Shown one piece after another: positions 1-64,000 of a stretch of DNA of 64,000 bases; the first letter of the stretch is position 1; each line of letters opens with the position of its first letter. Source of the DNA: Bilabrum cf. latius. Its lineage: Eukaryota. Location of the stretch: NCBI GenBank assembly GCA_965178125.1, contig OZ237746.1, forward strand, positions 186,001 through 250,000, written 5' to 3'. The notes beneath the pieces are model-generated. The model saw only the letters and a list, made by a program, of their open reading frames with translations, searched no databases and was not told where the DNA came from. A program made the translations under genes and the position numbers.

Positions 1-3000
1 CGTCGTACACGAGGACCAGGGCAAGCAGCTAAAGGCGCCCGAAATGGGCAAAACAGAGCCTAACCCATCGGTCCAGCCACCCGCCAAGGGCAACCTCCGC
101 AAGTAGGTGTCTATGGGGCGCGGCATCCTCAAGTCGGGGGGCAAGCAGTCGCGGGCGGGGTCGCATCCACCGCTCAGCAGGGGCCGCTCGTCGAACGCAA
201 TCGGGAACGCCGACGATCGCACGCAGTTGCAGCACCAGCAATACATGCCGCCTGCTCTCGACTCCGGGACAGACCTCGATGGCAATGCGTCGATGCACTC
301 GGGCACTGTCAGCTTCAAGGATGGGGCGAACCAAGTGGTCGTTATCGACGCCGCGGGAAAGAGCAGGAGCTTCCACAGCGGCACAGGCTCCACCCGATCC
401 ACCATCGCCAGGATCCACCAGCTGTCCCAGGGGGCGGTGGAGCCAGAGATCCGCTCCATCCGGATCGTTCTCCTGGTGCTGGCAGTTGCTGTCCTTGCCC
501 TTGGAGTTGGCATCGTGCTCTACATCCGCAACGTGGTGTCCCAGATTGGGAACAACTCGGCCTCCGTGTGGATTGCGGGGCAGAGGCGGAGGGCCATGCA
601 GACGGGCATCGATGCCGTGCTCTGGATGAGCTTCCAGACCTTTGACGCAAACGGCACGGTGACGGGAGCGTCGAGCGTGCTCGACTCGATCGAAGACACC
701 GTCCGCAGGCTGCAGGTCGACAGGGTGGCCACCGACATGGAGCTGCACCGCCTGCTAGAGGGCGCTGGAGGGCTGCCAGTGGATGCTACCGCTTCCATGC
801 TGGAGGAAATGCTACCAGAACAGGTTGCTCCGAGTGACCTGCTTGCCGGTCAATCGGAAGCGAAGCCTCGCCGCAAGCTGCAGTACAGCACCAGCGCCGA
901 GACAGCCCTCATGGCCAGCAATGGGAGAGGCGCGCTGGAGCTGCTTCGGCTGATATCGGACGAGATGCAGATCGCGCAGGCAAAGCTGTTCGAGCTGCAG
1001 ACGGATGCAAAGGTGGGAGAGTTCGAGGGCGATTTCCGCACGGCCATGCGGCTGCCGCAGCAGGCGGGCGGCGGCACCATCTACGTGCCGCTCATCCAGC
1101 ACGTGCAGGAGATCGTCGCTGCCATGCGGAGGATCTCCCGGCTGGACCCCCAGAACATCACGGTGTCCCAGCGCGACGTCCTCTTCTTGAGCCTCAACTC
1201 TGAGGTGTGGGACATGGCCATGGGGCACTCTTTGGAGATGAGGTACGTAGTGTTCGCCGCTGTGTTCCCCAGAACCGTGCAGGAGGTGGTGATCTTCGGG
1301 GCGGCGGTGTTTATCGTGTACAATCTCCTGGGGTCCATCGTGTTCGCGAGGCTGTCCACGAGGCTGGGCAGCAAGGTGCGCAACGTGCTGCAGACCTTCT
1401 TGCTGCTGCCCCGCTCCACCGCTCGAAGGCTTGCAAACCGCTCCCAGAGGCAGCTCAACAAGGTGCTGAGGGAGATCAACAGCGAGCTCATGTCCGACTC
1501 TGAGGAGGAGAGCGACGACGATGACGCGGACGACGTGAACTCCGTCAACGGCGCCGGGGGCGAGTCCAGCTCGGTGCAGCTGGTGCAGGCGCGGGCTGCG
1601 CCTGGTCGGCGGCAGGACTCGACCACCCAGCTGCTGCACAACAAGGAGACCAGCTCGGATCGGAGCCTCCTCGCCAAGTCGTTGGGACAGGCGGACGACG
1701 GCAGGAAAATCGTCCAAAGCGGCTCCGAGTCCAACCTTGCCGTTGGCAAAGCAGCCGCCGCGCACGGGAGCTAGCCGGCAGCACCAGGCGCGGGCAAATC
1801 GACCCGTTCCTTCGGGTCTCGCCGCAGCCGCAACTCGAGGTGGTCCTCCCGCCGAGCCAGAGAAGCAGCCCTCGTGAAGGCCATGGCAAACCTCAGGGAA
1901 CACACAGACAGCTCCCAGTTCGTGCTCCGGTCCACCGCCTGGCTGCTGCTGCCCATCCTGCTGGTGCTCGGCTTCATCCTCTTCTTCGTGTTCTGGCAGC
2001 TGTCCTTCACGCAGATCCTCCTGCGCACGTCCCAGAGGATCATCGCCTCTTCTTCGCTTGAGTCGTAGCTGGCCGGCACCACCAACACGATGCTGAGCCT
2101 GAACTCGGCCATCGCCAGGCACACCGGGAGGGACCGAATCATCGAACTCGCGAGACGGGCAGATCTCCAGGGGCAGAAGACCACGGCCGTGTCGGCCGTG
2201 CTGACGTTCGGGGGCAAAGCCGTCCTCACCAAGCTGCTGGTGGCGAATTCCACGCGGTCGGACGAGGTGTTTGGCAGCATCTCCAACGACGAGGTTCTCC
2301 TGACCGCCATTCAGAGCGACAAGGACCCGGGGGGCCCGCAGGCCTACGACGTCATGCACAGCGACTCGTGCACCGCGGTTGTGTGGCCGAACATCACCAC
2401 TGACGTCACCCTGGGACGCATCGAAGCCGCCCAGAGCCGACCATCCGAGAGCGTGCTGACCAGCCAGGAGTACGCCGATGCTCTGCGGATGTGCCTGGAG
2501 ACCGAGGGCGGCGTGCTGGGCGAGGGAGCTCTGTCCGCCATCGCCACTGTGGTGTTCAACCTGAGGCAGGCCGTGTCCGCCGTGTTCCTGGACCTGACGG
2601 GCCTGCCGCCCCCGTCCATGCAGGGCAACTCGGCCGACGACGTCTCTGTGATCCGGAGGTAGCGGAGAGCGCAGCAGGGCGGGCATCTGCGGGCAGGACT
2701 CGGAGGGCTGGATGGTGGCTCCGAAGCGGATGACTGGGACCCTAGGGAGTGGCACGAGGACGGGGGTGCATTGCCGTGGAGTGGCCACGGCGGACTCTAT
2801 GGGGAGGAACAGGGGGGGGGAGAGGGGGGGGGGGGGAGGTCTGGCGGTGCTTCCCCCGGAGCTGGCAAACCTGGACGGCGTGCTGGCTGGCGGTGCAGCG
2901 GCGGACCAATCGGATGGCCGGGGCTGGCGTGGTGCGTCCCCTTCGGATGCGTCGCATGAGAAGGTGGCTGGCAACTCGGAAGGCCTGTGGACCACGCGGT

Positions 3001-3689
3001 GGGCAAACCCGCAATCAGGAGATACTCCGTGGGATTGGAACGGTGAGAGGACCAGCTCGCAAGAGTCCATCCGGCAGCAAGCAAAACGAAACGATGCCGT
3101 GGCATCACGAACCCCTGGGGGGCACACAAGGGGTGGTGCAAGTGGCGATGAATCCTCGCTCGCTGGCGCCACACCGGCGGCTTCGAACCTGGCAGCGGAA
3201 GCAGGCGATCTGCTGGAGAGCAGGGAGCTCCAAACGGGTTCTAACACCACGGATTTGGTTGCAGAGGAAGGTCAGCTTTCGTTCAGCACGGTAGCAACGA
3301 TGCTGGATTTCACCTTCAAGATCAGGGCCATCGTAAACCCCTTCCTGCTTCATTCCGTGTCGGCTATCCGCATCAACTTCTTCTTGGGTCTGAACTCGGA
3401 ACTTAGTAGCGGCTAGAGTCTAGTGGAAGTATCGGCGTGGGTGTTTGTAGGCGTATTCCTGCTAACGACGACGCTGTACTGGCCGGCGGTCGCAAGCCTG
3501 AACGTCCCGCTGACATCTGCGAGGCAGATGCTGCTTCTCCTGCCGGAAGAGACGATCTTGCGGGTGACCGTGTTGCGAACTGCCTTGTATCGCATCGCTA
3601 CCGAGCACGAGCGCAACATGGCTGGCTCCGCAAAGGTTGCGCCGGAGGGAGGTGACGGTGCAGGTGACGGCGCCGTCGCGAGCGCCTGA
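1..3689 (+). CDS. 5'-partial multi-pass membrane protein; C-terminal region resembles TmcB/TmcC-like (PAS-associated) protist membrane proteins
   Basis: The frame is open from window start through TAGs at 104, 1772, 2066 and 2660. It changes frame across the G-runs at 2812-2838, continues through TAG 3414 and ends at TGA 3687-3689. Several hydrophobic helices are present; two are followed by 'FLLLP'/'MLLLLP' motifs. Confidence 0.65.
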
Positions 3690-3863: not shown

Positions 3864-6596
3864 TCAAAAGTCGTCGAACGGATTCGATGAGCCCGTCGCA
3901 GCGGGAGGAGCAGGCGCAGGCGCGCCACCCCCGCCTCCGAACAGGTCATCGTCGTCGTCGTCCTAGAACGGCGCAGCCGAGGCGGAAGGCGCCGGAGCGG
4001 GCACAGGCGCAGGCGCAGGAGCCATGCCACCGAAGCTCCCAAACAGATCATCATCCGCCGCGGCGGGAGCCGCTACTGCTGGCGCCGGCATCCCCATGCC
4101 CATGCCCACGCCCATCCCGCCCCCACCGGACGAGCCCCCCGTCCCTGCCCTGCTCCTTGGCGCGCTCTTGGGCGCCGGTTTGGTCACGTCGATGGCCTTG
4201 TCCAGCGCGTCTCCCATGGCGGCGAACGGATCCGGAGCCGAGGGCTCGATGTCCGGTTCCGCTGCGTGCGCGGCGCCGGCTGCGCCGGCAGGCTTGGCTG
4301 GCGAGGCGAACGGGTTGGTCTGGTGGGAGCCAGCTTGCGGTTGGGGCTGGGGATGGGGCGGGGCTGATGTTCCCTGTGCCGCTCCTGCTACAGCTGCAAG
4401 GTGGTTGTACTGCTGCACGATCTGACCGTACGTTTGCTGCAGCTGAACCATATTCTGCTGCAGCATGCCTGCCTGCTGCTGCTGCTATGGACTCAGGGGC
4501 TGCCCGCTCCGCACCTGCTGGTCCAGCTGGGAGTACGTCTGCTGCACCATCTGCATCTGCTGCTGCACCTGTGCCGCATTCGACTGCAGCACCTGCATCT
4601 GCTGCTGCACATCGGGGCCCGCACCAAGCTGAGGCTGCTGCGGCTGAGGTGCACCCAATCCAGGCCCCGGTCCTTGTCCTGGCCCTGGCCCGGCCATGCC
4701 GAGCTGGGGAGCGTCTGCGGCAGGACCCTCCAAGTCATCAAACGGGTTGCTGCTGCCCCCACCAGCACCTCCGGCCGCGGGCGCACCCACACCCACCCCT
4801 ACCGGAGCAGCAGCCACAGGAGCAGGCACCTGCTGGTATAGCTTCGCGAAGTCCGTCGCCGACAACGCCCTGCCCCTGGCGTCCTTTTTCTCTTCATCCT
4901 CACCATTCCCGTCCGCCTCCTTGCCCCCCTCCCCCTCGTCGAATCCGGCCCAGTCGCCGTCGCCATCGTCTCCACCGCCAGCTGCGTTGCCGCTGCCCTG
5001 CTTGCTGCCTGCAGACGACCCGGCCCCGCCACCAGCGCCACCAAGCATGGCTGCAAAATCATCGTCATCGTCACCGGTCCCATTCGCCCCTGTCCCTGTC
5101 CCTGCCCCTGCCCCAGCCTTTGGCTTGGGAGAGTCAAACGGTTCCCACGATGAACCCCCGTCGCTCTAAGCTCTGGCCGCTACCGGGGCGGCTGCCTCTG
5201 GCTCTGGCTCTGGCTCAAATCCAAAATCGGGCACCGCACCCGCTTGTTCCCTGGCTTGCTTCTTGGGAGCTGCCTCTGTAGAAGGCCCCGGGGAGCCGAA
5301 GTCAACCCAAGACTCGTCCTCGTCCGTTGCTCCCGCTCCCCCAGTGGTTGGGGCCGGGGCAGGGGCCGGGGCAGGGGCAGCTGCTCCGGATCCGCCGAAC
5401 AGGTCATCCTCGTCGTCGTCGTCACCCCCCGAGTCTGCCGCCGCAGCTGACGCACCCACGGCGCTGCCCCCCCTGGACCGGCCCCGGCTCCCCCTCGCGT
5501 GCCGGCTCCTGCGCGGGCCCTCGAGCCCTAGGCCCCCCCCCACGGAGGGGCTGTCTGCGCCCGCACCACCGTTCGATGCACCCAGCGGCGCGATCCGGAT
5601 GGCGCCCAGGCCGCCGCCCCCAGATCCGGATCCAGTTCCGGTTTCTGGGAGCACCTCGCTGAGGGGTGCCTCCCGGGGGGCGGAGCCTGCCCTGCGGCGC
5701 CGATCCGCAGCTCGACTGCTGCCGCCAGCGCCAGAGGAGGAGGAAGCCGAGGCTCCCCCGGATGCCGCAGATGCACCTCCAGCAGGCAGCCCGTCCCCTG
5801 ATTTCCTGCTTCGAGCGCTCCTGTGTTTTTTGCTCGCCTTGCTGTCCGAGATGGCCCAGCGCTTGTCAATGTACTTGAGGCGAATGAAGTCGCGGGCCCT
5901 CTCTGGTTCTTCCGGCGACGGGAGGGCAAATTGCTTTTTGTCCCATGTGGCAAGATATTTCTCGTTTACTCTCTTGTTCCCCCCCTTCTCAATTTCATCC
6001 ACGTCTTCTGACTTGAATGACGTCGCGGACACGCCCATCACGCGCCAGCCATTCTCGCGGCTGCATGGAGGACAAGCCAAGGATCGATATACATTGTGAA
6101 CGTCCATGCATGCATGCATGGATCACCGACGAATATTGACGACACAATGAAGGGGGGCTGGGGTTTGCGATTGATGTGCCGCCAGTGCAGTGGACCGCAC
6201 ATCGGACAACTTCCCGTAAATCTCACTGGATGCCCGAGCACTGCTAGCAAATAAAGGTTTTCCATTGCCATGATACGTAAATCGGCATCTGCGGAGCTGG
6301 GGCTATGACATCAGCAGAGCAAATCATACGCGGCGCGGAGAAAAGAGGCTGCTACTGTGCATCAATGCGCATCAATGCAGCGCGCGAGACAATAACTTTG
6401 CACGGCGGTATCAAACACTCGGTACACTCGACTCCGCTAGACCGTGCCGTCATGCTGAAGGCTGCACCACTGATCCATGCGAGCTTTACAGTTCCTACAT
6501 GCTACACCCTCTCACACGGCTGGTACAATCTGCGCACCGCTTATTGGATTTTTTGTGCATAAACTTCTTCAGCCTAGCATCTACATCTTTTGGCAT
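3864..6596 (-). CDS. ArfGAP-domain protein, AGFG1-like, with NPF motifs (~779 aa, 3 exons)
   Basis: Exons 6596-6516, 6288-6227 and 6060-3864 with GT-AG introns. The spliced Zn finger CADC-x16-C[TAG]QC-SGIHRE has exact ArfGAP spacing; 'GGNKRVNEKYLATW' and 'DFIRLKYIDKRW' follow. TAGs at 6244, 5166, 4485 and 3963. Ends NPFDDF-TGA. Confidence 0.9.
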
Positions 6597-6764: not shown

Positions 6765-9700
6765 ATGGCGCAAGCCCGAGATGAAGTTGAGCGAGAGACC
6801 CGCTCCGGTGCGGCTGCAGAGCGACTAGCAGCTGCAAGATCGAGAGGCGACTCTCTTGCGGGGAGGTATGAACGCAGAACGACACTGCGCAAGGAAGATC
6901 TAATGCCCAGACTCATGGTAGGGATCGAAGGCCTGGATGAGGATCCCAACGTGTTCGGGGGCAAGCCTGTAGTAGCGTTGCTTTTCGACAGGAATGGGTA
7001 GTTGCAAGGTGGAGAGGTTGTATTCTGGCCAAGTAATCCAGATGCAATCCGAAGGACACATGCGTGAGTTGTAACCATGCTAGGTTGGAAGACTAATGCT
7101 GTTTGACGCGGTTGCCTGCGCATGACTCTTGCACTGTGGTGGCGCTGCGGAGTTCGCTGTTTCTCTCCACATCGGGCCCGCGGTTGACACCGGTAGGAGC
7201 GTAGCAAACTGAACCATGCGGTACGTATCTAGTACTTTGCTCGCGCACTCATGTACTAGCATGGTACCGCTCTACATTTGTCCCTGCAGGAGCCTCCGGT
7301 TGCCGCACCTGCCTCCAGGTTGCGACCAGCTGGCGGTCGCGTGCTCGTTTCCCTTCGAGGCGCTCGCCAGCGACGCACTGCTCCTCGAAGTCGCCGTGTA
7401 CGACGTGCTCGCACACCGACTGGTCCCCCTGTGCCGCGCTCTGACAACGACCACCACTCTCGCGAGGCAGAGGGGAGACCTCACCCTCCAACCACAGGGG
7501 CTGCACGCGCACACGCACACGCACACGCAGCAGCAGGGGCGTGGAGGCGGCGGGGGCGCGGGGCTGGACCCGCTCCTGGCCTCTACTGCCCCCGCCGTGG
7601 GGGCGGCTGCCAGCACCATTTCCGGCTCCGGATCCGCCACGGTCCGCCGATCCGGTGTGGACCTGAGCGTCGCGTTCCTGGGCCGGGTGGCGGGCCACGA
7701 CGCGCTCAACCCCACTTTGTCCAGGCTGCGCCGCATCGCCAGTCAGTCCGGCAGGCTGCCGCAGCGGGCCGGGAGCAGATCAGGCCCGGGGGTCGGCTCG
7801 GACCCCTTCGTGGGGGTGCCCCCCTCGGTGGGCAGGCCCGACGCAGCCACCCGGGCCATGGCGGCACGCACCCGGATCCGCCTCCGGTGCGTGTTCTCTG
7901 AGGACGTCTCGGACGCGCTCAAAGCCAGGGCGGCTGGGCTCTCTCCCGTGCAGGTGTCGCTGCTGGGGGAAGTGCCAACTGTGGACCAGTATGTCGCGGG
8001 GCTGACTGAGAAGGAGAAGCAAGAAAGGGAGCCGGAGCTGTGGCAGGCCGTGAGGATCGGGAGCGTGCAGGGGCTGGGGCTACCGAACGTTCGTCAGGGG
8101 TTCCTTGGCGGGGAGGCACCCCCGCGGGCGAGGCTCCGCGTGTTTCAGGTGGCGGACGGTGACCTGGCCCGCGCCCGCGCCGCCTCCATGCGCACTCACT
8201 CAGGCGGCGGCGGGGGCGGATTCTCGTCCAGGTTTCTCACAGAGGCATCGCGAAGGGCACGTCTGGCAGAGGCATTGCCCACTGGTGCATCCCACGGGTG
8301 GATGGAGGTGTGTTCCCTGGGACCCACAGGGGCCTCTGCACCTGCTGGGGGGAATGACCCCCAGTTGGGGGCCCTGGAGATACCCCTGTCCAAGCTGGGG
8401 GCAGACGAGTCGGCGCTGTCACTGGACCCTCAGCAGGCCGTGCAGCAGGCCCTCAGCTGCCACCTGGCCCTTGAGCTCTGGCACACGACAGGGTCAGGAG
8501 CGTCCATGCAGGACAAAGTGCTGCTCGGGAGGACCGTCATGACTGCGGCCGAGCTGCTGCAGATGACCGGCAAGCACACGCACATGGAGCAACCCGAGGG
8601 AGGCACTGGGGGGAGCTGGGGCAAATCATCCTCCTCTTCCTTCTCTGCGTCTGCAAGGGGTGTGAGTGCCGGAAGGGCCGCTGATCCGCTCGACGACCCG
8701 GCAGGTGCAACTGCGGGACGTCCGAGGGGAGGCGCTGGCGCTAGCGGTGGCAGTGCCCATGGTGTACCTGGCAGCCTGGACGCGCTGGCCATGGATCCCA
8801 GTTCCCACCTGGCCGGTGGTGCGGCGGAACTGCAGCTAGTGGGCGTAGGGGGCGGCGGCCAGGGCACGGGTCAGGAAGGCAAGGACAGCTGCGGCTTGCT
8901 GCTGGCCGGTGTGCAGCTGCTGCAGCAAGTCACTGGGGCTCTCGTGCCAAAGTCCAAGGAGACGCTGGTGAGGCAGCACGCCATATACGCGGAGCGCAGG
9001 GAACACGCGGCGAGGGCGCTGCTGGAGACGGCCTTGCCTGCGCCCTTGCGCATGCTGCGGCACTAGCTGTTCAACGGCATGCAGCTCGTACCAATCCTAG
9101 CCTTTGATCTCTCCTCCCCAAGAGCCAACAGGGCCAGCGGGGTGGTCAGGGCGGCGGATTCCGAGTAGCACGGCAAGGCCATGGAGGAGGCGAGGCTCAC
9201 TGCCGAGGCACGCAGGCACACGTGGCTGCAGGGCATCAGCAGGATGGGCGGCTCGGGAGGTAGAGGTAGAGACGCTGTTAGGTGCTAGGCATCGGAGGAG
9301 CTGTGCAGGCAACTGCCTGCGGATTTCCTGCCGAGGGGGGAGGCGGTTGAGTTGCTTGGAGGGAGTTCACCGACCTCCAGATCGGGTGGAGGGCCGTCGT
9401 CCTCGTCTGCCGCGGTGGCCAGCCCGGATGGTGACGCTGCCGAGGACTGGGAGGTGGTGCAGCCCGAAGATGGCAGCAAGCCGTACTATTGGAACAGAAA
9501 GACCAACGAGACGCGATGGAAGAAACCGCCGGCACTGCGATCCAAGAAATCAAGGGCAAAGATCGAGAAAGCCAGAATCGAAGCCGAGGAAGCTGCGGCG
9601 GCGGCCGCTGCAGCATCCAAGCGCAAGCGGCACAGCAAGGCCGCCCTCACATTTGCCCTGGCCATGGAGCGCATCGCAGAAGAAGCCATGGATATTCTAG

Positions 9701-14373: not shown

Positions 14374-14537
14374 GCATCGTGACAGGGATCGCTAAATGCA
14401 GCATCCATGGGTAAATACTCTGGCTCCTATCCATTTAGTATACTTCTTTATCATAGTTTCGAGCTTAATCTACGGCCATAGATCGTGTACACCTGTGAAA
14501 TCCAGCAGTTGCCTTTCGACTTGTTGCGTGTACATTT

Positions 14538-16185: not shown

Positions 16186-17184
16186 TCACCTCTCCTTGTG
16201 GCTGCACTTGTCCGTGCCCTGAAACCCGCACCGGCTGCACAGCCTCGCCTTGGCCTCCGGGTGCCCCTTGTCGCTGGAGAACACGTGCGTCCCGCACCAC
16301 GCGCAGTGGTCTTCGTGCGCGATACCATGTTGGGTGCACCGGTACGCCACATCCTTGTCGCTTGAAAAGACGTGTCCCCCGCACCGCAGGCACTTGTCCG
16401 ACTTGGAGAACCGGCAGGATGAGCACATGAACATCTGCTGCCGCTCGCTCGATTTCTCGCTGTCGAAAATGTGACGGTCACAGAACCGGGGCGCGGTGGG
16501 GCGGGGCCTATGCTACTGCTGCTACTGGTGGTGGTGGTGGTTTGATGACGGTGTGCTGCTGCTCACACCGCCGGATGATGATGACGACGGCTGCTGCTGC
16601 CCGTGCATCTGCGTTCCCGGCACACTGCCTGTTCCTGGCTAGCCCTACCTCACCTGCGGTGGTGCAAGTCCCGCTGCTGCTGCAAGGACGCCTGCTCCAG
16701 GCTGCTGCTGGCCGGCACCCTGCTGCTACGCGGGAGGAGCGTACCCCGGCGCGGGCTAGGAATAGCCAGCATACGGATTTACTGCCGCGGCGGCTCCCGG
16801 CTGCTGTCCTACCGTAAAGCCTGGAGCATGCGATACTTGTGGATGAGTAACAGCCGGCTGGTAGGGCGATACTGGGACTTGAGCCTCTGCAGATGGCGCG
16901 CTTGGAGCCCCCGGGTAACCAGACCCATTCGCACCGTACGGAGAAGCTGGCACACCGGGGCTTGCGTTGCCTCCTGAATATGATGGCTGATGATTGGGTG
17001 AAGGTGCGGCTCGGGTGGTTGGGTTGTCCATTGAAATCGTCTGCTACGGTGGTTCGCTCGCGGGAACGCCAGCATCTCTGCAACCACACTGCTCCATGAT
17101 TCGGTACCTATAGTGGAATGCGACGTATCCACCGATGAAAAATATCCATATCCAAAAGTACCAGTTCGATGTCACGGAAGACAT
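16186..17184 (-). CDS. Protein with N-terminal hydrophobic anchor, Gln/Pro-rich linker and C-terminal Cys/His-rich PHF5-like zinc-binding domain (~332 aa)
   Basis: ORF fragments 17044-17247, 16756-17031 and 16186-16434 are in one frame, joined by TAGs, several in Gln context (HQ*QQ*H; Q*QTI). C-terminal threefold CxxC/CxxH pattern; TGA stop. Start could be ATG 17247. Confidence 0.6.
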
Positions 17185-39809: not shown

Positions 39810-39845
<36 letters not shown>

Positions 39846-54522: not shown

Positions 54523-54655
54523 GCTATTCTTTGAATAACGAAAGCTAGATTCTGTGTGGAGTGAGAAGCGGCAATCCGGAATCCGGATTGGCCCCTGCTG
54601 ATGCCTCACCCCCCCAACAAGCGATCAATCGTAGAACTTTGAATAATTCCTGTAG

Positions 54656-57230
54656 TTAACTCCTACGATCAGATGTACTCCGCTAAATGAGGGTCCGCAA
54701 CCTGGGAGACATGCGAGCACGAGCCAGCCTCCCTCCCAGCTCTCCTGCCCTTCCCAGCAGCCGGAGCGCCGCCCGCACCAGCACCTGCACCCTCAGAGCC
54801 GCCTCTCCCGTGATCATGGGGTCCAGCATCTGCAGCCGCATCAGCTCTTCGGGGCCCACTGCGCCCATCTCTCGCAGCAGCATGGCCAGGTCCAGCGCAC
54901 CTTTCCCCCACAGCTCATCCGGAGACACGGCGGGGAGTGCCAGCATAAGCAGCTCTACCGCATCGAGCCGGAATGCTGCCTAGACGCTGAGACCGCCGGG
55001 AGCCGGCTAGGGCGGAGGCATGGGCCAAACACCGGAGGGTCCCGCACCTGCAGAGCGTACAGGTGTACTTCCACCTTGTGCTTGGGCCGGGTCACCACGC
55101 CTAGCAGCACCCCCTGCCCCGCTGAGGGGTCCACCAGCAGCATTCACCACCCCTTGCGGAGTCCCAGGCACAGCCCAACCGACCGCGTCTTGCTCACTCT
55201 CATCATCATCATCCTCACTCTCATCGTCATCCTCACTCTCATCCTCGGCATCATCCGAGTCTTCCTCCGGTCTCGGATCCAGCAGGAGCCCATGGGCCGG
55301 CAACTGCCCTGGTTCACCCGCCGGTCTCAACCTGAACCGTGCCCCGAACACGCTCGAGTCCCCGTTCCACTGCAGCAGCGGCCTCTCCGCAGCGGCGTGA
55401 TCCATCCCAGGCTCTGTATCGAGCCTAGCTTCAGGACGAGGCGAGCAGAGGCAGGCACGGGCCAGCACTGCCACCCACTGCAGTGGGGTGCCCCCACGGG
55501 GCCCCTGCAGGTCCGATGCGAACCGGCCGAAATCGCCTCCGATCTTTCTCCCAAAGAGCCGCTTGTAGTTGGCACCGATCTGCGCGTGCTGCGCCCAGCC
55601 GTCCTGGCTGACGCGGATGGCCGCCACTGTCGCGTCCTGCATGGCATCCACGAACGCCCCCGAGGTTCTGGGAGCGCGAGCACTACTACTGCCTGTGGAG
55701 GATGCTGCCTGTCTGAGTACCGCCGTTGGTGCGGGGCGGATGTCGGGATTGACCGCGCCCTCGATTCTGAAGATCGCGTCTTGGTTCGTTAAGCCGCCCG
55801 CGTGCGTCAGACCGTGGCCTCCCAGCTGCCCCAGGCAGATTAACAGGTTCAGCACGTTGCTCGGGCGTTCAGTCCCAGGAGGGAGGTATGCACCGAGTCC
55901 AGACTAGGCGCGTGCAAAGGACTCCCTCACTTTGCGGCCCGTTCGGCGCCTGAAGACCTGCCCGATATCCGTGCAGGTGAATTCTGCCTTGCCCTCTGAT
56001 GCAATATCACGCACGCATTGGAGCAGGGTTCGAATGAACTCGGCAGCGGGTTGAAAATCCACAGGTGGCTACCGGAGAGATTCCGTGGGGCCTGCGGCAG
56101 GACCCGACCCAATGGCAGGACCCGACCCAATGGCAGGACCCGACCCAATGGCAGGACCCGACCCAATGGCAGGACCCGACCCAATGGCAGGACCCGACCC
56201 AATGGCAGGACCCGACCCAATGGCAGGACCCGACCCAATGGCAGGACCCGACCCAATGGTTGGATCCTCACCCTCCCAATCCTCTTCCTCCTCCTCCTCC
56301 TCCTCCTCCTCTTCCTCCTCCTCCTCATCGTCATCATCTTCATCATTGTAACCGCTGTCCGTCTGCTCGGCTCGGGCCGCCCTAAACCTCTCCATTGCTG
56401 CGTGCAGCACCACTGCCCTGTCCACCTGAGCCTCCGCCTTCACCTCCTCGCCCATCGCCTCCGTCCGCTTCGTCTTGCTCGCCATGTGGTGCCGCATCTG
56501 CTCGTGCAGCCTCCGGATGGTTCGGGCGTGTATCTCCCCCTCGGGACAGTGAGCCCCAAGAACGGACCCCAGTGCCCTGGCCCGCTGGAACGCGGCGTTC
56601 ACGCGCTCGGGTGGCCACCGCTGGAACCTGCTGACTCGATGCGCCGATCCGTTCCTGACTCGCTGCAGGTATTCGCACGCCTCTTCGATGATGCCGCGTG
56701 CATCGTCGATGATCCGATCCCTCTCGCGATTGCTCCGGCAGAGGCCGTTCAGGACGAGCGCCAGTGTGAAGGCTCTCGGGTTCGAATTAATCGTCTTCAG
56801 GAGGTAGTACAGGTCCATGCCGCTACCCTGAGAGCCGTACACCTGTCTGGCAACATCAACGTGAGGAGCGAGCGCCTGTTGGAGCACCTGCTCGAGCCTT
56901 GTAATGTAGTCGAAGGGAGCGAGCTCGTAAGGATGCCAGAGTGTCCACGGAACCACGCTGCCATCGGACACGAACTCAACCGTGGAATACGCAGGTGGGT
57001 CGTATACACCTCTTCTGAGCTGGGGTTCAGGTCGCGACTCTGACTCGGAGCTCGCACAATCTCGTGCAGGGCCGGCAGCCCCCGCTGGCTCGTGAGCTGG
57101 TGAAGAAGCAAGACGACTTTCGCCGTCCCCCGGAGCCTCTGCTGGTACACCTAAAGAGGGTCTCGAGCTGGTACTTGGGCGTGATACACTTGTGGAAACT
57201 GCTTCGTTGCTTGCTTCGCGGGCAATGTCT
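54656..57230 (-). CDS. Paralogous protein with one HEPN-like domain (RNGSAH), acidic tract, IGSGPA repeat and two possible LOTUS/OST-HTH-like domains; 5' end unresolved
   Basis: One frame runs from ~57229 through TAGs at 56069, 55904, 55007, 54980 and 54683 to TAA 54656. There is no suitable in-frame ATG, so an upstream exon (possibly from ATG 57600) is needed. It might be spliced to the downstream ORF, but I found no phase-compatible junction. Confidence 0.65.
56096..56257. repeat. 18-bp perfect tandem repeat x9 (encodes IGSGPA on the minus strand)
   Basis: ggcaggacccgacccaat repeated nine times. Confidence 0.95.
56857..56959. repeat. 103-bp dispersed repeat, copy A
   Basis: Near-identical to 53244-53346. 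Confidence 0.92.
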
Positions 57231-57681
57231 CAATCGCCCCACGGAATCGTTCTAAGTCAGCAGTTGGTGATTCACTTCGTAGCATACGAATCAAAGCATC
57301 CCTTACATTGCCTACGCTTATGGTTGATGCACCTCTCTCCATGCCCGAGCCGCGCTGGCCAGTGGCGTGAGCTACTCCGTCAAAGTGTGCACGGCCTCGA
57401 GCCTGAATGTTTTCTCCCGGGTCCACCTCGGACAATGCAGCTCTACTCATTATATCTAAGTGTCTTATGGCTATAAATCTCTTCGTGTTGCCTGGTGTGG
57501 CTAGAGTTTGCAGGTGGGAATTCACCGTGGAAATATCATTCTTGGGCGCCGCGCATTTCATGGTTCCGCCGGCGTACTTCAAGTTTGGAATATTGACCAT
57601 TTGACAAAGCAGCGATGGGCGCCGACAGAACTAGGTATTAAGTGCAGGTAATCAACACAGTGCGTATCTAGTATTAGGCAG

Positions 57682-60600
57682 ATGCTTTCATTTGGATAGT
57701 TCAGCTCGAGAGTATCTGCTACGGCCTGGCGCGATGTGCAGCAGATCAAAGTCGACACGCTTCGGCTGTCAGAATCACCAATCTTGGTCCCATGGGTATT
57801 TCAATCAAGACGGGAGTTGGAGTATGCCGGCACCGCTTGCCTTGACCTGCATTATGTGCAAGCACAATCTCGTGATGCGTATTCACTCGACATGCCGGTG
57901 TTGGGCAAGCTGCGCATATTCAACTCCAAAGGGGCGATGCTAGCATCTGACAAGAAGCGAGAACTGGGCAGCTGTGCTACTGGGGTCCTTGCGTCCATTG
58001 CAGGCAGGGAGCCGCTGAATTCCAGCGACCTGTTCCATGTGCGCGTGCTCGCGTACGTCGACCCGAAACACCACAGACATATCCACTGGCTGGCAGCCCC
58101 AGCGATATTTATTAAATTCTTTGGACTAGACATGACAGGTGCCAGGCCGCATCCACAGCCGGCCGGGAGCAAGCTCGGCCCGGTTCGCATGTCTGCGAAG
58201 ATGGCGACCGCAGTGGGCGAGCAGCTGAAGTCGAGCGCAATTACCGAAAGCAGACCACTGGCAGCGGAACACAAGCGCGATGTTGTGCTAGCAAGCTCCA
58301 CGCCGGATGGTGCAGTGGACCCGACCGGCCAAGCATCGCAGCAGCCTGAGGAAGCAATGGCCGCAGGCACCGGGCCGCCCCTTTTTTTCTGGCTCGTGGC
58401 AACCGCCAGTGGGAGCGGCGAAGCGCCTGGCTCTGGCACCCTACCCACTGGTGGCAATAATAGCGCGAGGAATGCCACTAGCACGCTCCGCTGGACCGCC
58501 TACCCGCTTTCGGATGCAGGCAAAGCAGCCAGGCATGCACTGCACGGTACTGCACTGCCCGACTCGGCCGAAGCAGAAGCGGGAGAGTCAGCCGATGCAC
58601 TCGTCAGCGCGGCATGCGCCAGAGGCCCCGGTATGCTCGGTGGAGACTCGGAATCAGATCTATCACTGAAAGCGGCTAGGCCAGGTGCAGCGTGGGCAGC
58701 CAGCGCCAGCACCAGTACCAGCGAGGCAGAGGCAGGGGCAGGGGCAGGGGCAGGGGCAGGGGCAGGGGCAGGGGCAGGGGCAGGGGCAGGGGCAGGGGCA
58801 GGGGCAGAAGCGAAGGTCCCAGGGAACACACGCGCGGGCTGCCTGGTGCTGGGCTGTCTCGACCCCAGCCCAGACCCCTCCGTGCTCGGGTGGCCCATTA
58901 GGAACGCGCTCCTGGCCCTGCAGCTGAGGTGGAGGGTGGCCAGTGCCTGCGTCGCTGCGTGCCGGCTGGATGCGGCCGGTGCACTTAGTGTCGCAGGGGT
59001 ACAGAAGAATGAAGATGAAGATGGAGAAGGGGGAGAGGCGGACGGACATGCTCTCGCTGGTGATGGCAGCGGGAGAGCTTCTGTATCGTTAGGTGTGACG
59101 AGCTCCGATGCGGATGCCGCTGGCCCAGACAGAGGCAGCGCTCGTCACACCAGAAACAGGCGCGCAGCTCGGCTGGTGAGCATGCTGTGGTAGGTGCAGC
59201 TCCCGGCGGTTTCAGAGGAGCAGCTGCTCGACCTCCGACGATGGGCAGATGCCGTGAATGGCGATGCACCGGACCAGGGAACCGGTGCGCATGCTGCTGA
59301 TCCGGCAGCCGCCGCTGCTTGCGTTGGCTCGCCGGCACGTACCGCCCCTGCCGCCGCTACCTCCAAGAGGGACTCGCCGCCGGAGAAGCTGCCCTCGTGG
59401 ATCGGAGCCACCGGCTGGGAGCAGCGGAGGGTCAAGGTGAAGGTCCCGGGGCAGCCGGGGAAGTTCCGCTACCAGTACCGCGCGGCGCCCACGGTCACCG
59501 ACCTGGGCAAAGCCCTGGACCCTGAGGCAGCGGCCGAGCAGGGGGCGCGCCTAAACCTAGAGCTCATGCGCTGGAGGTAGATGCCCGGGCTCGACACCCG
59601 CATGGTGGCAAGCACGCGGTTCCTGCTGCTCGGGGCGGGCACGCTGGGCTGCTTCGTGGCGCGGTCCCTCGTGGCGTGGGGCGCGCGGCGCCTCACATTC
59701 CTCGACAGCGGAACCGTGTCCGCCTCCAACCCCGTGCGGCAGCCCCTTTTCGAAGCCAAGGACGCTGCGGAGGGGGGGAGGCCTAAAGCGCGAGCAGCCG
59801 CCGAGGCCATACGGCGGGTGCTTCCCGCCGTGGACGCGGCCGCGATTCGGCTCCGGATCCCCATGCCGGGGCACTCCGCGGGGCCCAAGGGGGGCAGGGG
59901 CCAGCGAGAGGCGATGGGGGCCCACGGGGAGCTGCTGCGGGCGGTGCGGAACCACGACGTGGTTCTTGTTCTAACGGACACAAGGGAGAGTCGCTGGCTG
60001 CCCACGCTCATGTGCGCCGCACTGGGAAAGCCGTGCCTGAACGTGGCCCTTGGGTTCGACTCGTGCGTGGTGATACGGAGCGGGTGCAGGGGGCCGGGAG
60101 AGACTGTCGAGGTAGGTGGTGTGACGAGTGATTCCGGTGGTGTGACGAGTGGCGCTGCTTCGGCGCCGGAGCACCCTGTCGTCAGCAAACCGCTGCCTTA
60201 GCCTTCATCGTCTTCGTTTTCCTCTTCGTCTTCCTCTTCGTCGCCCCGGCTGGGGTGCTATTTCTGCCAGGACGTGGTTGCCCCCGCAGACTCCACTCAG
60301 GGTAGGACCTTGGACCAGCAGTGCACGGTGACCAGGCCCGGCCTGGCACCCATCGCATCCGCGCTGGCCGCCGAACTAGCCGTTGGGCTTCTGCACCACC
60401 CGGCGGGCTTCCGGGCACCCCATGACGAGGGCGATGGAGGCGGAGGTGGGGGCGGAAGAGGAGGCAGCGGGGGCGCCGCTCGATCGGAGTTCGGTGCGAT
60501 GCCTCACTGCGCCCGGTTCTTCCTCCGTCGGTGGCAGCCGGTGCTGGGCGGCTCCCCGGCGTTTCCCGAGTGCACGGCCTGCGGCGACAGGGTCTGCGAG

Positions 60601-60948
60601 GCGTACGGAAGGGACCCGGAATCGTTTCTTCTCTCTGCCATGGAGGACGACGGAGGCGAGCATGATGGCACTGGAAGCGGGGAGGACGGAAGCGGTGGGG
60701 GGGGAGTGGGAGGCCGCAAGGGGGACCAAGGGAGGCGGGGGGGCGGGGGGTTTTTGGAGGAGGTCAGCGGGCTGGCTGCGATGAAGAGAATAATGGACGA
60801 TGCTGCGGGCGCGGCTGGAACTGGGGCAATGGCAGCGGTAGGCGCAGGAGCAGCTGCGGCAACAAGCTCCGTGGTGCGGGCCGATTTGGCGGAGGCTGTG
60901 CCCACTGGTGGAGATCAAGGCGAGAATGATGAGTGGGAGTTGCTGTGA
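57682..60948 (+). CDS. ATG7: Ubiquitin-like modifier-activating enzyme ATG7 (~1088 aa)
   Basis: Motifs 'LGWPIRNAL', 'LNLELMRWR[TAG]MPGLD', 'LLLGAGTLGC', 'VSASNPVRQPLF', 'IPMPGH', 'DTRESRWLP', 'LGCYFCQDVVAP' and catalytic 'TLDQQCTVTRPG'. TAGs at 57697, 59191, 59578 and 60199; TGA stop. A short upstream exon from ATG 57615 is possible. Confidence 0.95.
58732..58806. repeat. Coding hexamer microsatellite (GCAGGG)n, (Ala-Gly)n insert in ATG7
   Basis: About 12.5 perfect units are visible. Confidence 0.93.
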
Positions 60949-61857
60949 AGATGCCACGGGTAGTAGAGTTTGGGCAAAAAGTTGGTGGTTTGTGGCCACC
61001 TTGCGGTTGCTGCAGCGCAGGGTACCAGCACGCGCCGGTAGGCATGCAGAGAGGAGCCGTGAACTTTTTAAGTATACATAAACGTTCATTTCTGCTACCA
61101 TTCGTGCGTGTCATTGCCGCAACACGTGTGATAGCGCTCAAGATGCGGAAGAGGGTGATGATCGGATCAGCCGCGATTGTTCTCGAGACCTCGGAGGTTC
61201 CGTTGTGTTGTGGGAAAATGGCCCGTGGCAAAATCTGTGACGCAGCCAACGTCCGAACGCGGTAGTGTGCAGGTGCGTGCTTCTTTCTCCTGTGGTAGAG
61301 CGGTGCGGTTGATAAATTAGTGTGAAATACACATATCGGGCCAGCTGAAACTCCCTATTTCTGCTTGGGAGTTGTTCTAACTAAGTCTGGGCGACAGCTT
61401 GGCCGCGGCCGCGGCGGCACGAACTTAACTACTTTGAGAAGCACATCCAGGTAAGTTTGCAAGCAATATTCAACAAGTTATTTGCATGTATCTATGGGAA
61501 GTGCATGCTGGCATTCAATGGCTGGATTCTGGGTCATTTTTAGGGTGCCGCGTGCCGCTTGATGGTCGTCGCGTGCCAACTTGCTCACGTGCTATGGCGA
61601 CGATAACCCCATGTATGAAGATGATGCTCTCACACAGGTGGATTAGTCCAATTTATAGTGCATTCAGTTCAATGGCGGACACGATTGGTCCGTGACTGGA
61701 ATTGACTGGGAGGCGATGGCGGCATGCGAGTGCGGCGATCCATGCCAGCTGCAACTCAATGCACGCCAATTCCGTCTCCCGTACCAAGAGCATTCGTTAT
61801 CTGATCTATTATTCTGTCAACGCAGGTTGGCATTGATAATTAGTATCGATTTCAGCC

Positions 61858-64000
61858 ATGAAGCCAGGGTACGGCCACGAAACGTAGGCCCTCGCTGGTC
61901 TCAGCAATGTGGTGCACCGCAGCACGGGCTTCAACTCGGCAGCACATGCCCAAAGTATGATCCATGGGCTGCGTACTCCTCAAACTATTGGTACAGTGTA
62001 GACGTTTGGAACCCACCGCATTGGGGCTCCGTCAGGCATGCCTGCATCTGGCAGGGCGACGCCAGGTCAGGACAAACAGGTTGCCGCTTCTAACAATGTG
62101 GCGCAGGGCAGCGGGGTTCAGCCGCAGCAGGCTGGGCATGGTGGATCATACGTTGCGAACAGTAAACACCTGGTGGAGCCTTTGCTTGCCGCTGCGGCGG
62201 GCTCCTTCGGAGACGGCCTGAGGATGCATCTCGACGAATCGCACGGATCTAGACGCTTCTCGATTTCTTTCGACAACTCGGTTTTGAAGCCCAGGGTGGG
62301 CAAGCACCTTACCTGCGCGTGGCGGGCAGCCATTCGTTGCGCTACTCAGGAAGAACGGCCACTGAGCGACCACGTAATAAACCGCCGATCTCGCGCCATC
62401 GAATTCTCCGGCGCTGATCTTCTAGATTCGATTGGCGGCGATCAGGATCTATACAGGCAAATTCGGGCGGCATATTTTGGTGCATAGGGCGTGGCTCCAC
62501 CTGAGTCGGCCGCGAAGGGGACCGCGGTTGGAGGGGCAGACATGGTGCGGCGGAGAAATGGCTCAACAGATAGCATGGTCTCGGCTATCGCTCTTCGTTC
62601 GCCGCCAGTGTCCTCGCAGGCCATCTCTACAGCCGCACAGCGTACGGCAATACTTTCTTCAAGTGCATCCGCAGCAATGGCGCCGCCCTCTCCAGCTTCA
62701 TCGTCGCTGTCTCGCGGGCGCCTGGTCATTCCAACAGCGCCTCCACCTGAGCCGCAGTATCTTGTCCCGCAGTATCTCAGTCAGCCATTCATCAACGGAA
62801 AGAATGGCACTTTTGGAGAAGGACTCACCTTGCAATTGGGCCCCACGCCAAGGTCTCCCTGGTCGATTCGGTTCGACAACCGAGTGCTCAATCCCCGCAT
62901 CGGTTTCATCAAGTCGGGAGGGTGGAGAGCCGCCGTGCGCCGCGTGGCCGAATCTGAGGAGGCTATCGTGAAGAACGGAGCATCCGTCCGCGTGGTGGAG
63001 TTTAAAGGAGACGACCTGTACACTGCCCTGCGAGGATGCCGGTCCCTCCTCGCCGACCTGGGATACCAGGGAGTATCGGATCTCAGGGCAGGCTCTGGCA
63101 GGTCGATCCATGCGAGCGGTGAAGTCGAACCACCCAACCCTTCGTCTGCAAACATCGGCAACAAGCGGGGGAGGGCCAGCACCTGGGGTTCGAGCCAATC
63201 GCAGAGCGGTGGAAGCAATGCAAAGCGAGCTCGCACCCAGCCCGCATCAACAGGCACGGAAACCAGCACCAGCGTCGGGCTGAGCGATGGATGCAGTGAC
63301 ATGATTGCCGTGGCAGGCCTGCATGCCCTGGCGTCTGCCTCGGGCGGCAGCAGCCCAGCCAGCACCCCAGGCAGCGCCATCCATGGACCGTGGGCCGCGC
63401 ATGGCGATGGGCCGGGCCAGAGGGGCACGCAAGGCAGCGGGAGCGGGCAGCTGGCTGCGCACTGGCACCACCAGCACCATCAGCACCAGCATCATGGTGT
63501 CCATGCAGGCCAGAGAATGTTCCCTGGCTCATTCCCGCACCCTGGAGGCATGCTTCGTCATGGCCAGCCGTATTCCAGCTACCAGCCGCATCAGCACTTT
63601 CCTTCGTACCAGCAGCACCAGTACCAGCGAATACAGGCGGGGACAGGAATGCACCCGTTCATGAGCCAGGGCTCTGCTGTCCTCGATTTTGAGGGGACCG
63701 CGGGTGCATTGCATGGTGGCGCATCGCTGGACGCGCCAGTCCCCGGCATGAAGGCTGATCACCGGGCTCATGTGCAGGCGCAGCTGCAGATGCAACAGAT
63801 GCAGATATCTGAGAGATTGAGGCAGCTCGAGCATCTGCGAAGGATGGAAGAGTTGCAGAGGATGCAGGCACAGCTGCAGGAGCAGCAGGAGCAGCAGATG
63901 CTGCACAAGCAACGTTTACTGCAGTTTCAGCAGCAGAGCGCGCCTGCTTCTGGTGGTATGCGCAGCAATGTACTCTATGCACCAGCCCTACAATCGCCGT
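61858..64000 (+). CDS. 3'-partial hypothetical protein with two copies of an ~90-aa domain and a Gln/His-rich region
   Basis: The frame is open from ATG 61858 through TAGs at ~61882, 61996 and 62485 to the window end. Candidate 5'-UTR intron 61451-61825 (GTAAGT..ACGCAG). Confidence 0.7.

Follow-up and report, generated by a model that had tools for sequence, protein, structure and literature searches.

Introduction

Nuclear codes in which UAA and UAG both specify glutamine (NCBI table 6) have been described in ciliates, hexamitins, ulvophytes and oxymonads (PMC5304391). Reassignment of UAG alone is a rare kind of code change. In the nuclear code of the fornicate Iotanema spirale, UAG means Gln and UAA and UGA are stops; in the rhizarian exLh, UAG means Leu (PMC5304391). 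UAG is likewise described as Gln in phyllopharyngean ciliates and Protocruzia tuzeti, and as Ser in Scotinosphaera (PMC11687900), of which the last two had been missing from the known cases listed with the original prediction for the DNA studied here. That prediction, made for a stretch of 64 kb (hereafter the window), held that UAG encodes an amino acid, most likely Gln, and that UAA and UGA remain stops. The present analysis makes it probable that the window stems from the nucleus of a bicosoecid-related stramenopile in which UAG has passed from stop to sense, most likely Gln, leaving UAA and UGA as sole stops. The case is real and probably new, though the code variant itself is known, and it is apparently unreported for relatives of the marine flagellate Cafeteria: in a full-text literature search, no nuclear code change turned up for the bicosoecid/Cafeteria group. 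The word "stramenopile" is absent from the main text of PMC11687900.

Results

TAG is a frequent in-frame codon

Gene models were defined as 16 stop-to-stop frames in which only TAA and TGA were counted as stops (Table 1). TAG is not avoided in frame, and TAA and TGA are excluded. Over the 17,440 codons counted, from which the tandem-repeat block 46831-49599 was left out, TAG occurs 118 times in frame against 122 and 141 times in the two off frames. Since the frames are delimited by TAA and TGA, the in-frame counts of 0 TAA (off-frame 35 and 49) and 0 TGA (off-frame 210 and 347), which agree with the prediction, arise by construction; this does not apply to how long the frames are, nor to the conserved termini and Pfam domains that they join.

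Table 1. Gene models in the window (E, E-value of the Pfam or PDB match).
Feature	Position	Strand	In-frame TAG	Stop	Match or remark
Membrane-protein-like ORF	2..2959	+	4	TGA	No Pfam family in Pfam search; runs off window start
ArfGAP-domain gene	3864..6122	-	3	TGA	Pfam ArfGap, E 9.9e-8
ORF with weak WW-domain match	7213..10365	+	3	TGA	WW, 22 bits, under Pfam cut-off of 26.9
SelO (protein adenylyltransferase) gene	11485..14535	-	4	TAA	Pfam SelO, E 4.2e-75
Cytochrome c1 gene, last two exons	14906..15979	+	0	TGA	
Membrane-helix/Cys-rich gene	16186..17373	-	8 (7 past first ATG)	TGA	
eIF5A gene	17862..18688	+	0	TAA	
TPD-motif (PF14811) gene	19088..21823	-	6 (4 near 5' end)	TGA	Pfam TPD, E 2.1e-29
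Cyclic-nucleotide phosphodiesterase (PDE) gene	22218..26639	+	5	TGA	Pfam PDEase_I, E 6.8e-70
2-Oxopent-4-enoate hydratase (MhpD)-like gene	26709..28098	-			PDB 8ih6, E 4.1e-6; no Pfam match in Pfam search
ERCC1/Rad10 gene	28099..30288	-	5	TGA	Pfam Rad10, E 8.1e-36
Giant low-complexity ORF, CCCH zinc finger	30570..45500	+	48	TAA	4,976 codons
Repeat-bearing ORF	45709..54624	-	65	TGA	2,971 codons
Paralogue of ORF 45709..54624	54656..57229	-	5	TAA	
ATG7 gene	57652..60948	+	4	TGA	Pfam ThiF, E 1.3e-30; ATG7_N, E 7.1e-19
ORF with internally duplicated domain	61840..64000	+			Runs off window end

At least one in-frame TAG is present in 14 of the 16 frames, the proportion originally predicted; the exceptions are cytochrome c1 and eIF5A. 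The predicted total of well over 100 holds true with the 118 TAGs just counted but was partly inflated by one repeat: the excluded block adds 45, of which 44 are the same TAG of a 39-nt unit present in 44.6 tandem copies (46896-48633), one TAG in each. Both predicted giant frames broken by TAG alone exist, although the first measures 14.9 kb rather than 14.7; it contains no in-frame TAA or TGA, and its longest run without TAG is 412 codons.

Frames anchored by Pfam domains carry TAG as well, in ATG7, SelO and ArfGAP as had been claimed. ATG7_N and ThiF lie in a single 1,098-codon ATG7 frame with TAG at residues 16, 514, 643 and 850, ending in NDEWELL and a stop, the usual C-terminus; in SelO, TAG occupies residues 22, 48, 143 and 682. 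A single frame of the gene at 16186..17373 joins an N-terminal membrane helix to a Cys-rich C-terminus through a middle rich in P, Q and G. TAG is found mostly in Q-rich, low-complexity, fast-evolving parts, and the Gln-tract contexts reported at 4485 (P-TAG-QQQQ, in the ArfGAP gene), 31806, 35199, 37164/37179 and 43425/43440 are as described. In the MhpD-like frame, TAG 27679 stands one residue ahead of the part aligned to PDB 8ih6. TAGs near 5' ends may lie in untranslated leaders in the TPD frame (residues 18-75) and the ERCC1 frame (9-42), as may those at residues 2-42 of the MhpD-like frame.

Glutamine is the best-supported meaning of UAG

Seven pairwise alignments with paralogues or close relatives are significant; in them the residue opposite TAG is Q four times, S, E and H once each, and never Leu. 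TAG 28789 of ERCC1/Rad10 faces Q in the protein of a relative (P0438, 69% identity), and TAG 62485, in the first copy of the domain duplicated within ORF 61840..64000, faces CAG 63067 in the second (alignment score 142; shuffles 30 ± 6, maximum 55). The paralogue alignments yield E, Q and H. In SelO of the syntenic metagenome relative L001, TAG occurs in the motif ADV-TAG-LKGAG; at this column 147 of 150 homologues carry Q, and the window reads CAG (13924-13926). Residues within four positions of a TAG are Q in 11.1% of cases against a background of 5.2%, and a neighbour-profile likelihood places Q first, with H at -4.9, L at -31.7, Ser at -52.3 and Glu at -79.6.

The alternative that survives best, unlikely as it is, is a sense UAG with a different meaning, either Leu, known from exLh, or one of those known from other lineages (Glu, His, Ser, Tyr). 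At the ATG7 site WR-TAG-MP, the column holds L 56, H 26, I 21 and Q 1 time among 120 homologues, and L in 10 of the 15 most similar ones (the others being V, I, I, H and A), so that this site would fit Leu better than Gln. The paralogue alignments include E, H and S besides Q, and the same proteins hold Q- and L-rich tracts. The likelihood computed from seven filled homologue columns again ranks Q first (Glu -5.3, Ser -6.8, L -7.0), but without the near-invariant Q column, which belongs to L001 and not to the window, it becomes uninformative and does not favour Q (Ala first, Q -2.9). The Q-rich surroundings, moreover, could simply reflect that TAG arises by mutation from CAG. Against another amino acid stand the close alignments, with no Leu and four Q, the SelO column, and the penalties of Leu, Ser and Glu under both likelihoods. 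Glutamine is most likely the meaning of UAG, as predicted, judging from the four matches in seven, the near-invariant column in the relative and the Q-enriched neighbours; it is the best-supported reading, resting on few sites and not proven from 64 kb. No tRNA gene was found in the window, in L001 or in the Cafeteria-like contig L002, and an Rfam search gave no match.

UAA and UGA remain the stops

Somewhat less probable still is an ambiguous UAG, read as Gln within genes and as a context-dependent stop at some ends, as in Condylostoma, karyorelicts and Blastocrithidia. Because frames are delimited by TAA and TGA, a gene truly ending at TAG would appear merely extended, and contigs of sequencing runs cannot reveal transcript ends; TAG does occur near the 3' end of the PDE frame (residues 1379 and 1451 of 1473) and at residue 849 of 857 in frame 54659..57229. 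However, the four genes whose conserved C-termini can be assessed (eIF5A, SelO, cytochrome c1 and ATG7) end at TAA or TGA, as do all 15 frames with a stop (11 TGA, 4 TAA), and with two dedicated stops left there is no need for context-dependent termination. TAA was predicted to close four genes; it does so for eIF5A, SelO (directly after the terminal CSS) and the giant ORF; the readable frame of the MhpD-like gene, which may lack the last exon, ends at TGA.

That UAA and UAG are both reassigned, as in table 6, with in-frame TAA unseen merely through GC-richness, is highly improbable. It is true that no stop triplet is scarcer in the window than TAA, which occurs 185 and 150 times on the two strands (TAG, 421 and 494 times). 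A-ending codons, however, make up 15-37% of comparable pairs, and CAA is 21% of CAA plus CAG (190 against 703). With 118 TAG, or about 12% of the codons presumed to mean Gln (118 of 1,011), some 30 TAA should then occur in frame; none was observed, while TAA appears 35 and 49 times in the two off frames of these genes. TAA, moreover, closes eIF5A and SelO at conserved C-termini. When ORFs were reread with TAA as Gln or TGA as Trp, the two giant frames did not appear, and the former reading lengthened only one ORF of at least 600 residues, by 4 codons.

TAG persists in contigs of runs with spliced joints

Splice joints of the GT..AG type are present at 15058 to 15326 in runs X5, X6 and X7 (the cytochrome c1 intron, 15059-15325) and at 17918 to 18165 and 18185 to 18275 in X5 and X6, the latter two flanking a 20-nt eIF5A micro-exon (18166-18185). 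At least 24 of the 36 TAGs between 11.4 and 31.4 kb lie inside contigs of runs that show such joints, 16 of them in X6 or X7 contigs; run kinds were guessed by a tool, which flagged X5 as "probably DNA". All seven TAGs past the first ATG of the gene at 16186..17373 are covered by X5 and X7 contigs, with no differences. X5, X6 and X7 show not one base difference or indel over 20 kb, and the DNA-like run X1 agrees. The TAGs are unchanged in contigs of runs with splice joints, so they are unlikely to stem from editing, introns or assembly error. UAG thus stands as sense, and UAA and UGA as stops, on homology-anchored frames, in- and off-frame counts and unedited TAGs; genes that are both conserved and transcribed tolerate TAG in frame.

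That the TAGs are untranslated (pseudogenes, unrecognised introns, assembly errors or sites edited to CAG) is scarcely credible, even granting that some 5' TAGs may be in leaders and that X5 may contain DNA, given frames broken by TAG but never by TAA or TGA, base-for-base agreement of four runs from three studies, contigs with spliced junctions that pass unspliced through TAGs, and a syntenic relative that keeps the genes open with different TAGs.

The window is placed near Cafeteria

The placement is based on one 217-residue protein, cytochrome c1, and local synteny. In the cytochrome c1 tree, the window, P0121 and L001 form a group (support 100/98) within a 17-row clade (100/99), where Cafeteria alone among the rows carries the name of its own organism. 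A record labelled "Symbiodinium sp. KB8" also falls in this clade, adjoining Cafeteria. ATG7 and ERCC1 homologue searches returned no Cafeteria protein among their matches. Judged by tree and synteny, the nuclear DNA of the window comes from a heterotrophic stramenopile akin to Cafeteria (Bicosoecida), in line with the prediction of a lineage unlike those known to read UAG as Gln. In the relative L001 (75-85% DNA identity), the corresponding genes remain open too, with TAGs that differ from those of the window: the L001 orthologue of 16186..17373 has nine, and L001 contains PQ-TAG-TAG-TAG-NY. By contrast, TAG never occurs in frame in the 2,069 Pfam-supported codons of L002 (GC 0.71).

Discussion

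The code proposed here would be of the NCBI table-15 type. The decoder of UAG would be a tRNA-Gln whose anticodon, CUA, differs from that of tRNA-Gln(CUG) by a single base; no other anticodon reads UAG without also reading UAA. In addition, eRF1 would have lost or weakened its recognition of UAG. Under such a code, TAG would arise from CAG by a silent C-to-T change, for which a concentration of TAG in fast-evolving, Q-rich, low-complexity parts is expected. Because the Cafeteria-like contig is devoid of in-frame TAG, I suggest that reassignment took place once this lineage had parted from that of Cafeteria.

Among relatives whose records bear the name of their own organism, Cafeteria roenbergensis/burkhardae is the nearest. 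It shares with the window a high GC content (about 70% in Cafeteria), introns and the closeness of eIF5A to cytochrome c1; in the available text of PMC6972860, a non-standard code is mentioned only for its mitochondrion. Table 6 codes share with the window the change from stop to Gln and frequent TAG in Q-rich tracts, but in the window TAA is not sense and ends conserved genes. In exLh and Scotinosphaera, UAG is decoupled from UAA as it is here, whereas Leu and Ser are disfavoured in the window, though one ATG7 site fits Leu. Phyllopharyngeans and Protocruzia tuzeti, in which UAG rather than UAA became Gln, independently several times (PMC11687900), are ciliates and hence alveolates, unlike the stramenopile of the window. 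Iotanema spirale resembles the window in that reassignment affects only UAG, which apparently means Gln, and UAA stays a stop; the predicted mechanism, tRNA-Gln(CUA) and an altered eRF1, is the same too (PMC5304391). Iotanema, however, is an unrelated anaerobic metamonad known from its transcriptome (PMC5304391), whereas the window is genomic DNA of an aerobic (cytochrome c1-bearing), GC-rich stramenopile, in which TGA, not TAA, is the commoner stop.

Conserved genes run through in-frame TAG codons

The window, which has about 62% G+C and zero N, was cut into frames with TAA and TGA as the only stops. This procedure yielded 16 gene-sized frames, seven of which match Pfam families above the families' own cut-offs (see the table below).

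Gene frames identified in the window and the evidence for each
Feature	Position	Strand	Evidence
ArfGAP	3867-6122	-	Pfam
SelO	11488-14535	-	Pfam
Cytochrome c1	exons 14906-15058, 15326-15979		translation and homologue searches
eIF5A, three exons	17862-18688		translation and homologue searches; confirmed by atlas search
TPD-motif protein	19091-21823	-	Pfam
Cyclic-nucleotide phosphodiesterase (PDE)	22218-26636	+	Pfam
ERCC1/Rad10	28102-30288	-	Pfam
CCCH zinc finger, 4,976-codon frame	30570-45497	+	Pfam
ATG7, N-terminal and ThiF domains both present	57652-60945	+	Pfam
MhpD-like gene			PDB sequence match, E 4e-6 (weak); no match in the Pfam search

In-frame TAG is present in 14 of the 16 frames, the same fraction as in the original prediction, and is absent from cytochrome c1 and eIF5A. 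The conserved genes that carry it are ATG7, SelO, PDE, ERCC1, TPD and ArfGAP. Outside one tandem-repeat block the frames hold 118 TAGs in 17,440 codons, 115 of which lie 3' of the first in-frame ATG, a weak criterion. These 118 compare with 122 and 141 TAGs when the genes are read in their two off frames; the corresponding figures are 0 against 35 and 49 for TAA, and 0 against 210 and 347 for TGA, the absence of the last two codons in frame being a consequence of how the frames were delimited. Chance cannot explain that frames reach 4,976 and 2,971 codons and that Pfam domains are joined to conserved termini in single frames. Reading through TAA or TGA did not reproduce the 4,976- and 2,971-codon frames. 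A count of read-through ORFs over 40 metagenome loci was crude and did not discriminate. Since wrong frames of GC-rich DNA also yield long read-through ORFs, whichever stop codon is read as sense, homology-anchored frames alone are used as evidence here.

The 2,971-codon frame at 45709-54624 contains 65 TAGs, 44 of which are the same codon of a 39-nt tandem repeat (46896-48633, 44.6 copies, 95% identity), each unit having one TAG in its minus-strand frame (GGMGHAG*GAP.P). That part of the first count is therefore one event copied: the "well over 100" TAGs originally claimed hold for the 118 outside the repeat, and the 44 others reduce to a single repeat-unit codon. A 45-nt repeat (48687-49377) coding for AAKKAREAAKRAEL-like units comes after the 39-nt repeat; several frames are open on both strands of the two repeats, where nothing but the unbroken run of the 8.9-kb frame indicates which strand is coding. 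The minus-strand ORFs 45709-54624 and 54656-57229 adjoin, have in common a 33-residue stretch without mismatch (VVPWTLWHPYELAPFDYITRLEQVLQQALAPHV) and a 150-residue domain (34% identity), and constitute a lineage-specific paralogous family without a Pfam match.

Spliced-type contigs retain the TAGs

Among the sequencing runs that match the window, one coded organism accounts for four, which look like DNA, and two others account for three, guessed to be RNA; none is on record as RNA. Contigs of the DNA-like run X1 and of the three presumed RNA runs, X5, X6 and X7, were compared with the window over 11400-31399. A GT..AG joint at 15058->15326 is found in X5, X6 and X7 contigs, GT..AG joints at 17918->18165 and 18185->18275 in X5 and X6, and a joint at 14629->14906 in X6, while none of the X5-X7 GT..AG joints occurs among the X1 contig pieces listed for this interval. 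The two X5 and X6 joints delimit an apparent 20-nt micro-exon of eIF5A (18166-18185). Judged by their GT..AG joints only, the X5-X7 contigs look like spliced RNA; according to a remark of the tool, X5 may include DNA too.

X1, X5, X6 and X7 show zero base differences and zero indels relative to the window over this interval. At least 24 of its 36 in-frame TAGs lie, without differences, within the contig pieces listed, and at least 16 of them within listed X6 or X7 pieces. One X5 contig extends from the splice joint of cytochrome c1 through the convergent gene 16186-17373, seven of its TAGs included. Spliced contigs that agree with the genome at the TAGs make editing to CAG, removal as introns or assembly error unlikely; the original prediction had named CAG in mRNA and assembly errors as observations that would refute it, and neither was seen in the contig pieces listed. 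Together, the TAG-bearing Pfam-anchored frames and the unchanged TAGs in spliced-type contigs bear out the claim that UAG is a sense codon: the reassignment is real.

The contigs are silent on transcript ends and levels. Contig depth in X5-X7 is highest at the two TAG-free genes, cytochrome c1 and eIF5A; although depth measures expression poorly, this would fit TAG being a minor codon that heavily used genes avoid. In X1, depth reaches 2391 in the bin 26074-26740, compared with 34-78 elsewhere; this bin, in which odd joints are numerous, spans a low-complexity tract (GCA/CAG type) where the PDE gene reaches its 3' end.

UAA and UGA remain stops

Among the 15 frames that end within the window, 11 end with TGA and four with TAA. 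TAA closes eIF5A at its conserved end, SelO (...CSS), the giant ORF and ORF 54656-57229; TGA closes cytochrome c1 and ATG7 (...NDEWELL). A code in which UAA as well as UAG means Gln (table 6 type) predicts about 30 in-frame TAAs beside the 118 TAGs, given a CAA share of 21%. No TAA was found at a sense position and TAA closes conserved genes, which rules out this type of code for the window. UAA and UGA are thus not sense codons and terminate genes, in agreement with what had been predicted for both. As for a code in which the same codon serves as stop and sense, as in Condylostoma, karyorelicts and Blastocrithidia, the C-termini that could be judged use TAA or TGA, the contigs being blind to ends.

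UAG most likely specifies glutamine

TAGs seldom fall in conserved columns, which is what a young codon would show. Twelve TAG positions could be aligned with homologues of ATG7 (120 sequences) and SelO (150 representatives), seven of them in well-filled columns. The joint likelihood of these seven columns ranks Q first, followed by A (-1.7), T (-2.9), E (-5.3) and L (-7.0), a result that hinges on one SelO column and is uninformative without it. That column comes from L001, a syntenic metagenome contig of a relative, in which the TAG of ADV*LKGAG corresponds to Q in 147 of 150 SelO homologues and to CAG (13924-13926) in the window orthologue. The best match found for SelO was the homologue P0268, at 44% identity.

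The surroundings of TAG also resemble those of glutamine codons. Q makes up 11.1% (103/931) of the residues up to four positions away from a TAG and 5.2% overall, compared with 9.6% near CAA, 16.3% near CAG and 3.7-6.9% near CTG, TTG, GAG, AAG, TAC, TGG and TCG. A likelihood based on neighbour profiles places Q first, ahead of H (-4.9), M (-8.6) and L (-31.7), but this Q-rich context could in part reflect the origin of TAG from CAG and not its meaning.

Close pairwise alignments are the most telling evidence on what UAG means. TAGs of L001 SelO face Q and S in window SelO (59% identity), and the window ERCC1 TAG at 28789 faces Q in P0438, the ERCC1 protein of a relative (69% identity). Within an ORF whose domain is duplicated internally, the TAG at 62485 of one copy is matched by CAG (Q) at 63067 of the other, with an alignment score of 142 where shuffled sequences give 30 +/- 6. 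In the paralogues, TAGs face E and Q when 49600-54624 is aligned with 54659-57229 (34% identity), and a TAG faces H in the alignment with 45712-46830 (32% identity). In sum, four of the seven sites face Q, against a background of 5%, the rest face Q-like residues or Ser, and Leu occurs at none. Blastn searches with the TAG neighbourhoods returned only poly-Q self-matches and the tandem repeat, and in a self-BLAST of all frames low-complexity matches swamped the result.

The rival assignment, UAG = Leu, is the one made in a rhizarian (exLh type). It fits one site: at WR*MP of ATG7 (column 643), the 120 homologues have L 56 times, H 26, I 21 and Q once, and L occurs in 10 of the 15 nearest homologues, which counts against Gln. 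The ATG7 columns are indecisive overall, and Leu is disfavoured by the close alignments (0/7), the columns (-7.0) and the context (-31.7). The prediction that UAG means Gln thus comes out ahead in both likelihoods and in four of seven alignments, at few sites and with column 643 mostly Leu; of the residues that it had named as contrary signs, Glu is faced once and Leu prevails in that one column. If UAG is sense, there is a high probability that it stands for Gln, which is the most likely meaning of the reassigned codon.

The code change would postdate the split from Cafeteria

Homologue searches with ATG7 and ERCC1 found no close named relative; the ERCC1 search returned one close relative and no Cafeteria protein, and therefore supplies no second gene for placement. 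Placement accordingly relies on one protein, cytochrome c1, together with local synteny. The window protein is 99% identical to P0121, a homologue from a public assembly, and 94% to the L001 copy; at 80-81% follow proteins whose 90% cluster includes Cafeteria roenbergensis records. A maximum-likelihood tree of 44 rows joins the window, P0121 and L001 (100/98) within a larger clade of 17 rows (100/99), where Cafeteria is the sole row that bears the name of its own organism and near which oomycetes branch. This single-gene grouping agrees with the original view that the lineage is unlike those known to read UAG as Gln.

The contig L001 (5.8 kb, GC 0.56) is syntenic with the window at 13.2-18.6 kb (SelO, cytochrome c1, eIF5A), with DNA identity of 73-91% in matching blocks, or 75-85% if just the three that exceed 250 bp are counted. 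L001 has in-frame TAGs of its own, five in SelO and nine in the orthologue of 16186-17373, three of the latter following one another after a Gln codon. These orthologues (L001 3614-4408 and window 16186-17373, both minus strand) lack a Pfam match; a membrane helix at the N-terminus is conserved between them (MSSVTSNWYFWIWIFF... / MASVTSSWYFWVWILF...), a P/Q/G/Y-rich middle carries most of the TAGs, and the window gene has four CxxC-type repeats at its C-terminus.

In L002 (12.2 kb, GC 0.71), a Cafeteria-like contig from the same metagenome, eIF5A and cytochrome c1 lie about 3 kb apart; Cafeteria itself has about 70% G+C (PMC6972860). No in-frame TAG occurs in the 2,069 Pfam-supported codons of L002 (TIG, pectate-lyase-like, DNAAF11 and cytochrome c1) or in a further ORF of 399 codons. 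The simplest reading of these comparisons is that the source is a bicosoecid-related stramenopile group with at least two members, whose code would have changed after the split from the Cafeteria line.

The window organism's sequences appear under more than one organism label: three studies contribute runs, under three coded labels, that contain the same sequence without differences. Next to Cafeteria in the tree stands a record named "Symbiodinium sp. KB8", which also lies within the Cafeteria cytochrome c1 cluster (that of the homologue P0122). A record's label may therefore not be its true source. Small flagellates occur as culture contaminants.

Significance of a UAG-only change in a stramenopile

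UAG and UAA are almost always reassigned together, for reasons that are an open question, and nuclear codes that give them different meanings are few. Such codes bear on how one release factor can ignore only one codon. The code described here appears to be of the table 15 type (UAG Gln, UAA and UGA stop), new to a bicosoecid-related lineage. Full-text searches of main articles, few of them from subscription journals, found no paper that describes an altered nuclear code in a bicosoecid or another stramenopile. In a 2024 stramenopile review code reassignment appears only in a cited title on mitochondria, and the Cafeteria genome paper mentions a non-standard code for the mitochondrion only (PMC6972860).

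I lean slightly towards regarding this as the first nuclear code change in stramenopiles, in which a bicosoecid clade comprising two or more lineages of species rank (the source of the window and that of L001) would have switched UAG, and UAG only, to Gln once it had diverged from Cafeteria, which keeps the standard code. If so, the clade would offer a tractable sister pair, its genome and RNA data being already public, for studying how eRF1 and tRNA-Gln(CUA) uncouple UAG from UAA. Four genome assemblies exist for Cafeteria (PMC6972860), so that eRF1, glutaminyl-tRNA synthetase and tRNA-Gln genes can be closely compared with those of a standard-code relative. Another case of independent origin, in a stramenopile that is free-living, aerobic and GC-rich, would supply a data point from outside the ciliates and anaerobes.

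There is also a practical side, as standard-code gene callers truncate the proteins of this organism. The P0438 protein call opens with an internal Met, midway through the Rad10 domain (residue 293 of the window's ERCC1); judging from the protein alone, this is as expected if a standard-code caller was halted by an upstream in-frame TAG. With truncated proteins and several labels, annotation and contamination screening go wrong unless the code is recognised.

A possible mechanism, and comparison with known codes

ARAGORN detected no tRNA genes in the window, L001 or L002, the Rfam search gave no match, and the eRF1 gene does not lie within the 64-kb window. UAG would be read by a tRNA-Gln(CUA), one mutation away from tRNA-Gln(CUG). 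The anticodon is an identity element for glutaminyl-tRNA synthetase, and hence the synthetase may need to adapt to CUA. In addition, the N-domain of eRF1 would have changed so that recognition of UAG is lost.

UAG alone has been reassigned to Leu in a rhizarian and to Gln in Iotanema (PMC5304391), to Ser in Scotinosphaera, and to Gln twice in phyllopharyngean ciliates and in Protocruzia tuzeti (PMC11687900); an oligohymenophorean ciliate is described that reads UAA as Lys and UAG as Glu. For Iotanema it was argued that a sense UAG with UAA kept as stop requires a tRNA with anticodon CUA (PMC5304391). Iotanema eRF1 carries T32G in its GTS motif (PMC5304391), and by analogy a similar N-domain change may be expected in the organism studied here.
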